From Candidatus Sungbacteria bacterium RIFCSPLOWO2_01_FULL_47_32 (GTDB lineage: Bacteria; Patescibacteriota; Minisyncoccia; Sungbacterales; GWA2-42-14), in NCBI GenBank assembly GCA_001820685.1, contig MHQP01000014.1, forward strand, positions 1 to 53,164: a stretch of 53,164 nucleotides of DNA. The letters are read 5' to 3'. Both the position numbers and the translations under genes were made by a program. The notes under the pieces are model-generated. The model was not told the origin of the DNA, ran no database searches, and saw nothing but the letters and a program-made list of their open reading frames with translations. The first letter of the stretch is position 1. The number at the start of each line of letters is the position of its first letter. Shown here piece by piece: positions 16,001-21,816 of the stretch.

Positions 16001-16124
16001 AAAATTTACTTGGGTCGAATCCAAGAAACGAGCGGCGCTAATGTTCGAACGCATCCTAGTCGCCTTAGCGACGTAGGCGTCTCGATCTCCTGAATTAGCA
16101 TGTGCTGACTGCGGGACTTGGATT

Positions 16125-16312
16125 TTCACCCCGTTAGATACAGCAATATAATATTTAATATACTTCCAAGCAGCGCTGCGGGACCTGGATTCGAACCAAG
16201 ATACCCGCCTCCAGAGGGCGGTGTCCTACCGTTAGACGATCCCGCAGCGCTGCCAACAAGACAGAATCTCTGAAATAATTTCTCTACATTTAATTTTAAG
16301 CATCTAACGGGG
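16125..16312. mobile_element. 188-bp IR-bounded insertion in the T-loop of the outer tRNA-Gln, carrying a tRNA-Gln
   Basis: 11-bp inverted repeat CCCCGTTAGAT (16129-16139) / ATCTAACGGGG (16302-16312). Mobility is inferred. Confidence 0.65.
16176..16246 (-). tRNA. Inner, intact tRNA-Gln(CTG)
   Basis: TGCGGGATCGTCTAACGGTAGGACACCGCCCTCTGGAGGCGGGTATCTTGGTTCGAATCCAGGTCCCGCAG forms a full cloverleaf; CCA is not encoded. Confidence 0.95.
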
Positions 16313-16513
16313 CGAACCAAGATACCATGCTCCAGAGGCATGTGTCCTACCATTAGACGATCCCGCAATACGTAAACTATGTTAGAGGTTCACCAACGTC
16401 TTTCGTATATGAAATACCGTAAGGCGAAACCGCCTTTGGCTCACAATAATTTTAATAAACAAAAAGAATCTTTAACCTCTAACGTGGTAAAAGCGCCTGT
16501 TACGGCGCCTTTT

Positions 16514-18277: not shown

Positions 18278-19376
18278 TTATATCTGTTTTAGTTCTTCTT
18301 TTATAAATTCATCAAGTTCTCCTTCCAAAACTTTTTCGGCTTGCGTTGTTTCGTGTCCCGTGCGGTGGTCTTTTACCATTTTGTAGGGGTGGAGCACATA
18401 GGAGCGTATTTGGTGGCCCCACTCAATGGAGGCGGTTTTGTCGTGGTATGTTTCCCGTTCTTTTTTCTGCTCCTTTAGTTTCTTTTGGTACAATTTTGCC
18501 CGGAGCATTTCCATCGCTATCTCCCGATTTCCCTCCTGTGTTCGCCCGGCCTGCACGGATACGTTGAGACCGGTCGGAACATGCGTGATGCGAACTGCTG
18601 TTTCGCGCTTGTTCACGTTTTGGCCTCCGGGGCCGGACGACCTGAAAAAGTCTATTCTTAATTCATCGGGCTTCAGTTCTACTTCTTCCGGAGCAACAAA
18701 CTCCGGGAGCACCTCAACAAGCGCAAACGACGTGTGGCGAAGACTCTGCGAAGAAAAAGGCGAAATGCGGACAAGCCGATGCACTCCAGATTCTCTTTTT
18801 AAGTATCCGTACGCGTATGCTCCTTTTACTAAAATGGAAACGTTTTTCAGCCCCCAACCGGACGGTCCGTTTTGCTCTCCCCAGTGCTCGTGCACCGCCG
18901 CCGTTCCATATCCGCCTATTTCGGCCCAACGTTCATACATTCTTCGAAGCATTGCCACCCAGTCTTCCGAATCCTTTCCTCCCGCTCCGGCAAAAATTGA
19001 TAAAACCGCATTCCCTTTGTCGTAAGGGTTCGTGAAGCGCTTCAGAAGCATGAATTTATCAAAGTTTTTTTTGAGCTTACGGGCGCGTTCGGCGATTTCA
19101 TTCACCATCCCTTCGTCGGCTATTTGGAGCATCTCGATAAGGCTCCCCACTTCTCCCGCGTATTGCTCATATTCGGCGATTCTTTTTTTCAGCTGGGAAA
19201 GTTCCTGCGATTTTTTCTCGGCGGATTCGCGATGATTCCAGAAATCCGGCTCCGCCATTTCTTTTTCTATTTTGAGAATAGCTTCTTTTGTTTTGAGAAC
19301 GTCAAAGCCATTCCGCGGCATCGCGGATGTTATGATTAAGCTCTGCAAGATTTTGCGTCAATGCTTCCCGTTCCAT
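18278..19376 (-). CDS. prfB: Peptide chain release factor 2 with programmed +1 frameshift
   Basis: ATG at 19376 gives MEREALTQNLAELNHNIRDAAEWL, then CTT TGA C at 19307-19301; the +1 frame continues DVLKTK and contains the SPF and GGQ motifs. Confidence 0.95.
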
Positions 19377-19562
19377 ACTAGGTATACTGTAGCACTTTTG
19401 CGTGAAAAAAGAAAGGGCTGCCTGATTTTTTCAGCGCCATCTCCGAGATTCCCCTCTAAAAGCGGGTGAAAAAACAAAAACCTTCACTGTATTCACCCCT
19501 CGCCTTATTCCGGAGCCGAAGGTAGGATTTGAACCCACGACCTACGCGTTACGAAAGTGCTG

Positions 19563-19727
19563 TCCCGATTGATTAAAAAATAAGAGCCGCCTCCGAGATT
19601 CGAACTCGGGACCTTTGCTTTACGAAAGCACTGCTCTACCAGCTGAGCTAAGGCGGCTCTTATTTTTAAAATATCAATCGAGGATCCTCGAAAAATCTAT
19701 CCGGCTTTGCCGAATGATTTTTCGGGA
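19563..19727. mobile_element. 165-bp IR-bounded insertion in the D-stem of the outer tRNA-Thr, carrying a tRNA-Thr
   Basis: Terminal TCCCGA / TCGGGA; internal CGATTGAT/ATCAATCG and AAAAATAAGA/TCTTATTTTT arms. Mobility is inferred. Confidence 0.65.
19585..19657 (-). tRNA. Inner, intact tRNA-Thr(CGT)
   Basis: GCCGCCTTAGCTCAGCTGGTAGAGCAGTGCTTTCGTAAAGCAAAGGTCCCGAGTTCGAATCTCGGAGGCGGCT cloverleaf. Confidence 0.93.
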
Positions 19728-20010
19728 CTCTACCACTGAGCTACTTCGGCATGCTTTTAATTTATTTTTCCGCTACCGGAAACAAAAACCGCCGCCAAAG
19801 AAGACTATTGGAAAGAAGCTCATCCCGCGCCAGACCATGAATAGTTATATAAAACGGAATACATGGCGCAAAGCGAAAGAGGAAACTGGAACGGCACTTT
19901 CTCCAACCTATAACAAAAAACAGGCACTGTCCATGCCTGTTTCCATTTTTCAATTGTACATGCCTAAATTATTTTATTAAGCCCTTCCTTGGGAAAAACA
20001 CGCTTTTTTG

Positions 20011-20202
20011 TTATTCAAACGGCGTTCTTGTCTCAAACGGAGGATATCCCTCAAAAATAGGTTGACCTTCAAATATCGGCATATTTCCAAACGGCGGCTC
20101 AGACTCAAAGAGCTGTGCTGAAGCGCCGAACGGATTTAACATAAGGCCAACAAGAAACAACAGAAAAAGCCCGATAAATAGATTTTTTTGAGAAAGAATC
20201 AT
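20011..20202 (-). CDS. Small secreted peptide with hexapeptide repeats
   Basis: Signal peptide ending ASA, then EPPFGN MPIFEG QPIFEG YPPFET RTPFE. Confidence 0.6.
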   Translation of the reverse strand: MILSQKNLFIGLFLLFLVGLMLNPFGASAQLFESEPPFGNMPIFEGQPIFEGYPPFETRTPFE

Positions 20203-20292
20203 ATTGGTTGTACTTCACAGTTACGGATTAATACTTTCACTATACACCGTATACACCTTTCCATTAACCCAAGGAGGCGTTTTGTAAATAGG

Positions 20293-21816
20293 TTATTGAG
20301 GAAGAACTTCTATAAAATCCGGGATACTGTCGTCTTCGGAGTTGTCTCCGGGTATTGAGCACCCGGGATCGCCGGGGTAATCTACCCTGCCGTCCCCGTC
20401 GTTATCGCTTGCGTCGTTACATTCAGTAATCGCGCGCGTGTTTTCGTCAAGAATAGCTGATCTTGAAAGATTTGTCAAGTCTTTAACAGTAAGCCGAAGC
20501 CTGTAGAATCCCGGGTCAAGCGGAGTGTATCCCGGACCGGGAATCGCTGCAGAACTCCCGTTAATGAGTCCTGAAGATCCGGTAAGAAGCGGACACGCTG
20601 CGGGACATAAAACCCATGTCCAAGAATAACTTGCGAGGTTTCCGTCCGAGTCAGTCGCGGAAGCGCCTGCATGGGTATGGGCCGTGCTTACGGTAAGGGT
20701 GTGAGAGGGACCTGGGTAAACGGCTGGCGCCGCCACGGCAGTTTCCGTAAGATTTTGCGATGTCGTCATTCCGGCTGAATCGCTAACAGAAAGCTGTATC
20801 GTGTAATCTCCGGATAACGATACTGGGTACGTCGGCCCGGGTATTGAGACGCTCCCCCCGCTTATTAGAACACCCGCAGGAAGGGCCGGCGGAACATACC
20901 CTGCGGGGAATGAAACCCACGACCAGGTATAGCTTGAGAGATTGCCATCCGAGTCCGTGGTAGAAGCTCCTGCATGAACATGGATTGAACCGGTTAAGAG
21001 AGGAGTATGCGAAGTTCCAGGATATACGACCGGAGGAGAGAATGCCCCGCCGATAGACACGTTATTTGAACAAGCTATAGGTCCGACGGTGTCTACTGTA
21101 TCAGTGACAGTTACCGCGCCCGTCTTCAGTCCACTCGAGAGGTATTGTACTGTGACTACTGTTCCCGTACTGCCTCCAAGCGGCGCATCCCCCGACCACG
21201 CATAGGAGTAAGGCGGCGTACCTCCAGATGCAGTCGCTGTCCAAGTTACATTATCACCGATTGCGGCCGAGGTTGGAGAAACTGAACAGGATGCATCAAG
21301 CGACGGCAGCGGCACACAATTCGGGGTGGGGAATGAGCCATTCTCGGTTTGGATAGTCGTGTAGCCCGCCGCCCCGTCCTGAAGAACCATTGTATACGTA
21401 TAATCGGTGTTACTAACTCCTCCGTTCCAGATCCACGTAGCCCAACATCCGTATCCCGAATTGCTATCAACCGGTGAGCCAAGCAAGTCATATATAGTCA
21501 TGGTTAAGTAACGATTTTCGCATATAAATGATGAATCAGCATGTGAGATAAATCTTAAAGTAACAGATGGAGTTGGTCCCACGCAGGTCGGCCCGGTAAC
21601 GGAACTGCAGGCGGGAACTGAAATTCCAAGGCCTGTCGCCTCTGACCACTTAATATTATTCATCGCGATACTACTTGGTACTCTACCTAACGAAGGAAAT
21701 GAAAAAATGGCGATAGAAATAAGAATACCAACGCAAATAACCACGCCGGCAATATAATTCCGGTTTTTCTTGAAATTCGCTCTTTTTAGGCGTCTAAGCG
21801 CTCGAGTGAAAAGCAT
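20293..21816 (-). CDS. Membrane-anchored PKD/Ig-like repeat surface protein
   Basis: N-terminal TM; ASGGTPPYSYAW; two DSDGNLxSYxW repeats; C-terminal CNDASDNDGDGRVDYPGDPGC acidic motif. Confidence 0.8.
   Translation of the reverse strand: MLFTRALRRLKRANFKKNRNYIAGVVICVGILISIAIFSFPSLGRVPSSIAMNNIKWSEATGLGISVPACSSVTGPTCVGPTPSVTLRFISHADSSFICENRYLTMTIYDLLGSPVDSNSGYGCWATWIWNGGVSNTDYTYTMVLQDGAAGYTTIQTENGSFPTPNCVPLPSLDASCSVSPTSAAIGDNVTWTATASGGTPPYSYAWSGDAPLGGSTGTVVTVQYLSSGLKTGAVTVTDTVDTVGPIACSNNVSIGGAFSPPVVYPGTSHTPLLTGSIHVHAGASTTDSDGNLSSYTWSWVSFPAGYVPPALPAGVLISGGSVSIPGPTYPVSLSGDYTIQLSVSDSAGMTTSQNLTETAVAAPAVYPGPSHTLTVSTAHTHAGASATDSDGNLASYSWTWVLCPAACPLLTGSSGLINGSSAAIPGPGYTPLDPGFYRLRLTVKDLTNLSRSAILDENTRAITECNDASDNDGDGRVDYPGDPGCSIPGDNSEDDSIPDFIEVLPQ

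Follow-up and report, generated by a model that had tools for sequence, protein, structure and literature searches.

What is a complete transfer RNA (tRNA) gene doing inside another tRNA gene of the same specificity? The question is raised by a locus in contig MHQP01000014.1 of Candidatus Sungbacteria bacterium RIFCSPLOWO2_01_FULL_47_32 (assembly GCA_001820685.1), whose 53,164 nucleotides (nt) are referred to here as the window. At this locus a tRNA-Thr(CGT)-type gene on the minus strand is split between positions 24 and 25 of its D-stem by an insert of 165 nt, and the insert holds an intact tRNA-Thr(CGT) gene of its own. As argued below, this nest is probably the scar of a homing-type hairpin cassette of the GIY-YIG kind that brought a replacement tRNA with it, the inner gene being the one that works and the outer gene a relic. 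The genome that holds the window (G000; other G-numbers denote relatives from the same order, C a contig and L a locus) belongs to a groundwater bacterium and comprises 1.15 Mb in 48 contigs with 46.6% G+C, at 98.47% completeness. It encodes transfer-messenger RNA, bacterial release-factor and FtsEX genes, and the genomes of its relatives measure 0.5-1.2 Mb. Outside the order, the release factor RF2 is best matched, at about 51% identity, by metagenome-assembled genomes labelled Patescibacteria, Saccharibacteria, Spechtbacteria and Portnoybacteria.

The first step is the anatomy of the nest, which consists of the following parts.

19728..19750, 23 nt, minus strand: 5' piece of the outer tRNA-Thr(CGT)-type gene, positions 1-24, with the acceptor strand GCCGAAG and a D-arm ending in GAG (G24).
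19563..19727, 165 nt, minus strand: the insert, a two-hairpin cassette without an open reading frame (ORF), with the ends TCCCGA and TCGGGA.
19685..19727, minus strand: cassette module 1, made of TCCCGA, a hairpin CGAAAAATC..GATTTTTCG with an inner stem-loop, and TCGAGGA, as given by the fold.
19678..19691, 14 nt, strand-symmetric: the perfect palindrome TCGAGGATCCTCGA at the joint of modules 1 and 2.
19563..19684, minus strand: cassette module 2, made of TCCTCGA, a stalk (CGATTGAT plus AAAAATAAGA against TCTTATTTTT plus ATCAATCG) with the inner tRNA at its tip, and TCGGGA.
19585..19657, minus strand: the intact inner tRNA-Thr(CGT), found with the Rfam tRNA model and with ARAGORN.
19514..19562, 49 nt, minus strand: 3' piece of the outer tRNA, positions 25-73, with C25, the anticodon arm (CGT), the variable loop, the T-arm, CTTCGGC and the discriminator T.

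The inner gene matches the Rfam tRNA model with 65.8 bits (E 8.9e-14, model positions 1-71, threshold 29) and forms a full cloverleaf, ARAGORN placing a tRNA-Thr(cgt) at 19584-19657. Its acceptor stem is prolonged into the stalk by the flanking inverted repeats. The outer 3' piece gives a weak partial Rfam match (19522-19543, 12.5 bits, model positions 43-63), and when the two outer pieces are joined by script ARAGORN calls a tRNA-Thr(cgt) of 72 nt whose anticodon stem contains an A.C and a U.C mismatch. At minimum free energy, the fold of the 237-nt stretch (-101.1 kcal/mol, z = -8.43, 0 of 200 shuffles as stable) contains both cloverleaves, one nested in the other, with the outer 5' piece paired to the outer 3' piece, together with the side hairpin, the 10-bp extension and the helix of CGATTGAT with ATCAATCG. 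Within module 1, a terminator-like hairpin at 19715..19699 is followed by a T run. No ORF of 50 or more amino acids (aa) lies wholly within the 165-nt insert, and no sigma-70-like site was found in 19400-19950, where a promoter scan is uninformative for this lineage. The initial annotation, made from the letters alone, had listed these elements, and every one of them lies where it had been placed, on the minus strand; the nested architecture that it described, with a D-stem split, a stalk and a hairpin beside it, is borne out by sequence and fold, and the two mismatches that it claimed in the outer anticodon stem are the A.C and U.C pairs of the joined outer tRNA.

The insert is a member of a cassette family. 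A full element of this family reads TCCCGA, a stem-loop holding an ORF, the palindrome (TCGAGGA followed by TCCTCGA), a second stem-loop and TCGGGA. The palindrome may represent the place where two hairpin modules abut with their near-repeat ends. Its 12-nt core CGAGGATCCTCG is present in G000 in six exact copies and one variant, and is identical in G016 and G018. A scan by regular expression plus a stem test over sequences from G000 and its relatives returned 10 distinct complete cassettes (C1, C4, C8, C14, which is the Thr nest, C18, L046, L048, L056, L057 and L084); four have a module of 276-282 nt that holds a GIY-YIG ORF, four carry a tRNA and three carry neither. The ORF is intact in C1, L056, L057 and L084 and broken in C24. 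The palindrome follows directly after its stop codon in C24 and L084, and likewise lies just after the ORF in C1; comparison with these three copies identifies module 1 of the Thr nest as the slot of the ORF. In the Thr nest this module has shrunk to a hairpin of 43 nt and the tRNA sits in module 2, the tRNA of the G018 cassette being in module 1. The archetype of a cassette carrying both an ORF and a replacement tRNA is L084 (in G009), where positions 1-35 of a tRNA-Ala(TGC) gene are followed by TCCCGA, the GIY-YIG ORF, the palindrome, a stalk with an intact Ala(TGC) gene, TCGGAA and Ala positions 36-73, this last piece being 100% identical to the inner copy.

The nuclease encoded by the full-length copies is a bare GIY-YIG domain of about 85 aa. 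Cassette ORFs match the Pfam GIY-YIG family with E 1.2e-17 and 2.6e-13, and PF01541 has seven matches at six loci of G000, with E down to 8.9e-19. A PDB sequence search with the nuclease gave weak UPF0213 matches (1zg2 and 1ywl, E 0.0087 and 0.11), and the C4 ORF has a weak match to a group-I-intron endonuclease in NCBIfam (E 2.8e-4) that falls below the cut-off. Of the 62 genomes of the order, 51 have a small GIY-YIG gene, and a single genome can contain as many as 15 matches. In 11 of the 29 best GIY-YIG loci outside G000 a tRNA lies no more than 300 bp from the ORF, as against roughly 3% by chance according to our own estimate from tRNA density; in L083 the distance is 57 nt. The Thr-nest insert encodes no GIY-YIG nuclease, and since family members with the same ends do encode one, it is a miniature derivative and not an autonomous element. 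The inverted ends TCCCGA/TCGGGA and the seven dispersed copies that bear the palindrome are traits shared with miniature inverted-repeat transposable elements (MITEs).

A second cassette type has the ends CCCGTTAGA and TCTAACGGG(A/G)T(A/G)AA and is present in many paired copies, spaced by about 35-120 nt. On C15 it holds a GIY-YIG pseudogene, and in the nests of Thr(TGT), Gln and Pro it holds tRNAs. Short ORF-less elements running from CCCCGTTAGA to TCTAACGGGG, in pairs about 35-120 nt apart, are also scattered over many G000 contigs, mostly far from tRNAs (C1:34133/34230, C19:7265/7300 and C22:26609/26729 are examples). Their ends are those of the second cassette type and of the C15 pseudogene, and by sequence they qualify as a MITE-like family.

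The point of insertion is reused. The same junction, with GGTAGAG before the insert and CA after it, is found in the Thr nest, in L041, L046 and L048 of relatives, and at C18:89886-89959, where a self-search recovered a tRNA-Lys-like gene with the same D-stem point, the same ends and the same 14-nt palindrome around an insert without a tRNA. The 12-mer GGTAGAGTCCCG, in which GGTAGAG runs into TCCCG, has 11 matches in 9 of the 62 genomes of the order, against one match for the reversed control; nine of them are outside G000, seven lying in a tRNA D-arm followed by an insert and two elsewhere. The D-stem site is thus occupied in Thr and Lys tRNAs across genomes, and un-nested Thr(CGT) loci exist in others.

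Protein-coding genes are targets as well. In gatB of G000 (C1:41607-42000, L049 and L055) and of G011 (L056), which belong to different families of the order, a GIY-YIG cassette is inserted after about codon 11. Upstream of it the original start and first codons persist as a stub, and a new leader, start and first codons come after the cassette, so that the downstream ORF encodes a complete GatB_N protein (E 1.5e-106). If the cassette were removed, the frame from the old start would still be broken. With a new gene start and no in-frame splicing, the cassette acts here as DNA and not as an intron. On C1 the nuclease ORF continues across the palindrome and reaches a length of 108 aa. At a locus of G016 a cassette comes after an intact gene end, and on its far side lies the old, displaced end.

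The Thr nest is one of many. In a census of G000, 13 of the 34 intact tRNAs have same-strand cognate fragments within 700 nt, compared with 0/34 for reversed queries, and in the closed 923-kb genome of G026, which has intact tRNA genes for all 20 amino acids, cognate fragments flank 13 of 70 (control 0). Fragments upstream of the intact gene are derived from the 5' portion (mean relative position in the tRNA 0.29) and those downstream of it from the 3' portion (0.73-0.79), an arrangement that reveals colinear outer genes around the intact gene. Some loci (Tyr, Glu and Val among them) have downstream 3' fragments only. The census misses nests with a diverged or short outer gene; since those of Thr(CGT) and Gly(GCC) escape it for this reason, at least 15 of the 34 tRNA genes of G000 lie between pieces of a cognate tRNA. 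An intact cognate gene is present in every nest examined, and a scan of G000 for T-arm plus acceptor sequences found no tRNA species that exists only in interrupted form.

Nested Thr(CGT) genes also occur in G016, G047, G015, G008 and others, with a triple nest in G015; Lys(CTT) nests are present in G018 and G021, and G016 has a double nest. Further loci of relatives involve Ala, Cys, Asn, Gly and Met, the Asn locus L067 being multi-layered. In G000 itself, a multi-layer tRNA-Lys(TTT) locus at C18:89860-90580 (L003) has an outermost gene that is interrupted by a cassette in the D-stem and by inserts in the anticodon loop and the T-arm. The locus also comprises a 5' fragment in three identical copies and a single intact gene, which lies between CCCCGACAC and GTGTCGGGG; ARAGORN mislabels this intact Lys(TTT) gene as 'tRNA-Stop (tta)'.

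The window contains a second nest, which concerns tRNA-Gln(CTG).

16109..16367, minus strand: nest of tRNA-Gln(CTG), with outer pieces at 16367..16313 (positions 1-55) and 16124..16109 (positions 56-71).
16246..16176, minus strand: intact inner tRNA-Gln(CTG), within a cassette bounded by CCCCGTTAGA and TCTAACGGGG.

In this nest the anticodon stems of the outer and inner genes differ at every pair and both are fully paired, which indicates two alleles that were once functional and not a decayed duplicate.

These observations can be brought together in a scheme in which the 165-nt insert would be a degenerate, ORF-less copy of a mobile two-hairpin DNA cassette joined at TCGAGGATCCTCGA, the first module of full-length copies encoding the small, UPF0213-like GIY-YIG nuclease. 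Such cassettes would insert into conserved genes at set positions, in this case between GGTAGAG and CA in the D-stem of Thr and Lys tRNAs, and would move by nuclease-driven homing or by gene conversion. The cassette would arrive with a replacement piece of the target gene, as it appears to have done in gatB and at the G016 gene end, so that an intact copy of the broken gene would always come with it; for a tRNA of about 75 nt, this piece would be the whole gene, placed at the hairpin tip. The inner Thr(CGT) gene would then be the working one, its tRNA being freed from the precursor at the stalk top through the usual maturation of tRNA 5' and 3' ends, and the outer pieces would represent a disrupted and dispensable gene, presumably without function, that is starting to decay. 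Repeated invasion of the new copy could build multi-layer loci, such as those of Lys on C18, of Asn in L067 and the triple nest of G015, and asymmetric gene conversion from a nested donor might produce the frequent one-sided forms.

There are precedents for such a strategy. Free-standing homing-endonuclease genes accompanied by a replacement piece of their target are known among the GIY-YIG ORFs of fungal mitochondria (such as that of Allomyces atp6) and in phage T4, with SegB in a tRNA cluster. In those systems a conserved gene has the nuclease within it or next to it and stays functional through a segment that is foreign or duplicated, its displaced native piece being a pseudogene, and the gatB and UVR-domain cases found here display the same pattern of a displaced native piece and a replacement segment. 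The cassettes described here differ from them in that the replacement is often an entire gene held in the cassette hairpin, which results in nested and sometimes multi-layer loci, and in that the nuclease is a bare domain.

The closest described counterparts may be the inserts of ribosomal RNA (rRNA) genes in the Candidate Phyla Radiation (CPR), which encode GIY-YIG proteins, are unlike group I and group II introns and mostly lie at the top or base of stem-loops (J Bacteriol 2024, PMC11270868). Both sets of inserts share the bacterial group, the GIY-YIG ORFs and structured RNA genes as hosts. The word 'tRNA' does not occur in its main text, whereas the present cassettes lie in tRNA and protein genes, and these are further distinguished from the rRNA inserts described there by defined two-hairpin ends, by the reuse of sites across genomes and by a replacement gene copy.

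Which of the two Thr genes is the resident one? Identity between the outer and inner tRNAs is 73%, with compensated changes distinguishing their acceptor and T stems, in agreement with the initial view that the two genes are too different for a simple tandem duplication. The tRNA-Thr(CGT) gene upstream of prfB is a conserved arrangement (G004, G005, G011, G019 and G046), and occurs in 12 of 80 more distant loci, two of which have fragments; a plain, un-nested gene holds this place in G004, G005, G046 and others. The inner gene is 93% identical to that of G004, and the nearest relatives carry this inner type un-nested at the same locus; the best match of the outer gene reaches 86%. ARAGORN and a whole-genome Rfam scan detected no second intact Thr(CGT) gene in G000, so the proposal that the outer gene decays after its replacement fits both the inner gene as sole intact copy and the two mismatches of the outer arm. 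In L048, a double nest of a relative, the tRNA inside the D-stem insert has decayed and a second, intact Thr(TGT) gene is retained at the locus. From their sequences, redundant copies seem to decay on either side, the outer one in the Thr nest and an inner one in L048.

Several points weigh against a cassette origin with a working inner gene and a relic outside. The comparison of best matches across taxa had been proposed as a way to recognise the vertically inherited gene; the result, with the inner gene of the type that the closest relatives carry un-nested, does not fit a simple history of an old resident outside and an import inside. It may be that the whole nest was imported by co-conversion. 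Moreover, many outer genes are still good cloverleaves: ARAGORN calls a tRNA for six of seven joined outers, a biased sample for which recognisable ones were chosen. An outer gene of the GCCGAAG type with a cassette at the same point is present in two families of the order (G000 and G016), which could reflect long conservation and hence function. On the side of the mobile element, plain homing fails to explain a whole tRNA in a hairpin whose arms differ between loci and nevertheless pair almost perfectly. As the Thr-nest copy has no nuclease, its mobility is deduced from its relatives, in which the nuclease is a small protein of putative activity with no separate DNA-binding domain. There is no target-site duplication, the insert being flanked by GTAGAG and CAGCAC, and an empty-site allele of the Thr locus was found in none of four public DNA runs. 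Joints that skip 170-184 nt, with 5-19 other letters between sides of 23-24 nt, were considered as candidates for such alleles and were read as uninterrupted tRNAs of other organisms.

Among the competing explanations, the one that survives best, unlikely as it is, dispenses with the nuclease and invokes local rearrangement through template switching, fold-back synthesis or patchy recombination with the DNA of related species, the cassette-like ends being a common repeat. It draws on an Asp nest of G000 (C1:11507-11800, L054), whose outer halves are 100% identical to the inner gene. A 3' trailer of 13 nt follows both copies, that of the outer 3' piece included, and the reverse complement of this trailer recurs, at 13 of 14 positions, as the 5' arm of the inner stalk, a sequence relationship that suggests fold-back copying. 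In the Thr nest, the anticodon arm of the outer gene looks like a chimera of two allele types found in relatives, and these bacteria are thought to take up DNA readily. What speaks against such an origin is the uniformity of the elements. The ends, the palindrome and the insertion point are identical across different tRNAs and genomes, a GIY-YIG gene is present in full-length copies that share these ends, the tRNA linkage of 11 of the 29 GIY-YIG loci has no place in it, and chance would not reuse the junction of GGTAGAG with CA.

A true RNA intron is improbable. According to this proposal, the insert would represent a new, structure-defined bacterial kind, whose UCCCG/CGGGA helix marks the site of excision, the outer halves being ligated and the inner tRNA being intron-borne. 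The fold of the 237 nt into two nested cloverleaves would agree with it, as would the fact that the joined outer gene is recognisable as a tRNA here and in five of six other nests tested. Conservation of the closing helix contrasts with inner stems that vary and yet stay paired, and the inserts occupy several tRNA positions, as archaeal introns do. Archaeal protein-spliced rRNA introns, too, can carry homing endonucleases. Nevertheless, searches of the 98.47% complete G000 for EndA, RtcB, RNA_ligase (Rnl2-type) and 2_5_RNA_ligase2 (PF01974, PF01139, PF09414 and PF13563) returned 0 matches, the control genomes being matched, and no bulge-helix-bulge (BHB) is present at the junctions, because the closing helix TCCCGA/TCGGGA abuts the D-stem without unpaired bases. 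An intact cognate gene accompanies every interrupted tRNA seen, of which an intron would have no need; in gatB the cassette could not be removed by splicing in frame, and a new start codon is used instead; and the anticodon stem of the outer Thr gene has its two mismatches.

Known introns do not offer a closer parallel. In archaea and red algae, multi-intron, split and permuted tRNA genes with BHB introns have been described (PMC4090602, PMC3978253, PMC3728597, bioRxiv 10.64898/2026.10.13.758758). These introns likewise occupy many tRNA positions, the D-arm and the T-arm included, and related inserts occur in different tRNAs; they are spliced by EndA and RtcB at the BHB, whereas the present host is a bacterium with none of these in which an intact copy is always present. 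Group I introns of bacterial tRNAs are mobile inserts that may carry GIY-YIG endonucleases (PMC3984707). They have a ribozyme core of at least 200 nt and interrupt the anticodon loop, in contrast to a D-stem site at 24/25 and an insert without such a core. The Intron_gpI model had no match in 19000-20300 at E up to 10, nor in five other cassette loci, and no Rfam family other than tRNA was matched in these same regions. The group I cores of G000 are confined to C23 and C7 (C23:3377-3717 and C7:2337-2605, with 55.3 and 50.4 bits, above the Rfam threshold), with weaker ones nearby.

The most far-reaching version of this proposal, improbable as it is, makes the cassettes a new structure-defined tRNA intron of bacteria in which one transcript would give two tRNAs. 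The inner tRNA would be cut from the stalk tip by RNase P and 3' processing, and the outer one would be rejoined by a hypothetical endonuclease and ligase recognising the UCCCG/CGGGA helix. Were it true, no bacteria before these ultra-small ones would have had tRNA splicing by proteins or tRNAs borne on introns.

It is very improbable that an element of the integrase type, a prophage or an island, once integrated into the tRNA gene and was later deleted, leaving the flanking tRNA pieces as remnants of its attachment site. Fragments beside an intact tRNA are a known product of integration, in the form of one-sided direct repeats at the far end of integrase-bearing elements of 9-120 kb (RNA Biol 2023, PMC9897764), and the loci with downstream 3' fragments only (Tyr, Glu and Val) would suit such an origin. 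The two phenomena have in common that partial tRNA copies adjoin an intact gene and confuse annotation. They differ in that the present inserts, of 60-400 nt and with inverted ends, have a tRNA half on either side. The Thr nest consists of an upstream 5' piece and a downstream 3' piece, separated by an insert of 165 nt with inverted ends that splits the D-stem and has no ORF of 50 or more aa wholly inside it. Integration duplicates one end of a tRNA and not both ends around a complete third copy, and the insert belongs to the GIY-YIG cassette family.

Finally, a chimeric join of reads from the tRNA genes of two organisms, suggested by tRNA k-mers that are common to many organisms and by a depth at the inner tRNA hundreds of times that of the flanks, where contigs break, can be dismissed as next to impossible given that both junctions are bridged and that the same architecture recurs in independent genomes. 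The junction of the insert with the outer 5' piece is bridged by contigs in all four public DNA runs, which come from four studies, with 0-1 mismatch; per run, the contigs span 19300-19541 (19554 in X4) and from 19624-19632 to 20000. An 80-nt contig (19526-19605, 0 mismatches) bridges the junction of the outer 3' piece with the insert in X1, X2 and X6, none being listed for X4. The breaks are confined to the inner tRNA, where the depth contributed by other organisms is very high. Junction-spanning reads had been set beforehand as a test of the nest, and contigs bridge both junctions; since these contigs are independent, the nest is not an assembly artefact.

No account of nested or cassette-interrupted tRNA genes in these bacteria was found in a literature whose coverage stopped short of subscription journals and supplements. 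If the Thr nest is indeed the trace of a homing cassette, a selfish nuclease could invade single-copy essential genes of a minimal genome without killing its host, since a spare copy of the gene travels along. Layered 'Russian doll' tRNA loci would be an expected by-product, and tRNA alleles would apparently be replaced horizontally between species. With at least 15/34 tRNA genes affected in G000 and 13/70 in the closed genome of G026, nests shape the evolution of tRNA genes. Further, the small UPF0213-type GIY-YIG proteins, which are widespread and have had no assigned function so far, would gain a testable role, and the unexplained GIY-YIG inserts of CPR rRNA genes would be tied to a defined cassette with recognisable ends and targets. 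The nests might also serve as a natural model for the origin of split, interrupted and chimeric tRNA genes.

There is a practical side to this, as nests break assemblies at tRNA loci and mislead tRNA annotation in Patescibacteria. A tRNA-Ser(CGA)-like gene of G000 (C28:7074-7146) is cut by the end of its contig, and because of this assembly gaps are the best explanation for the absence of Asn, Trp and other tRNAs from G000.

Downstream of the Thr nest, on the minus strand, lies a prfB-type release-factor gene with its ATG at 19376..19374 and an in-frame TGA at codon 25, within CTT TGA C (19307..19300), which is the classical programmed +1 frameshift site of RF2. Owing to this TGA, the ORF listing shows only the part of the gene from 19348. 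A CTTTGA(C/T) motif likewise follows the tRNA in several relatives. Elsewhere in G000, a tRNA-like sequence at C4:20430-20510 with an acceptor stem, a T-arm (GGTGG TTTAAAT CCATC) and an aberrant anticodon region is called neither by ARAGORN nor by Rfam. In G026, besides the full dispersed set, 21 tRNA genes are packed into 2.9 kb (C1:439820-442718), an array that may be mobile or phage-derived.

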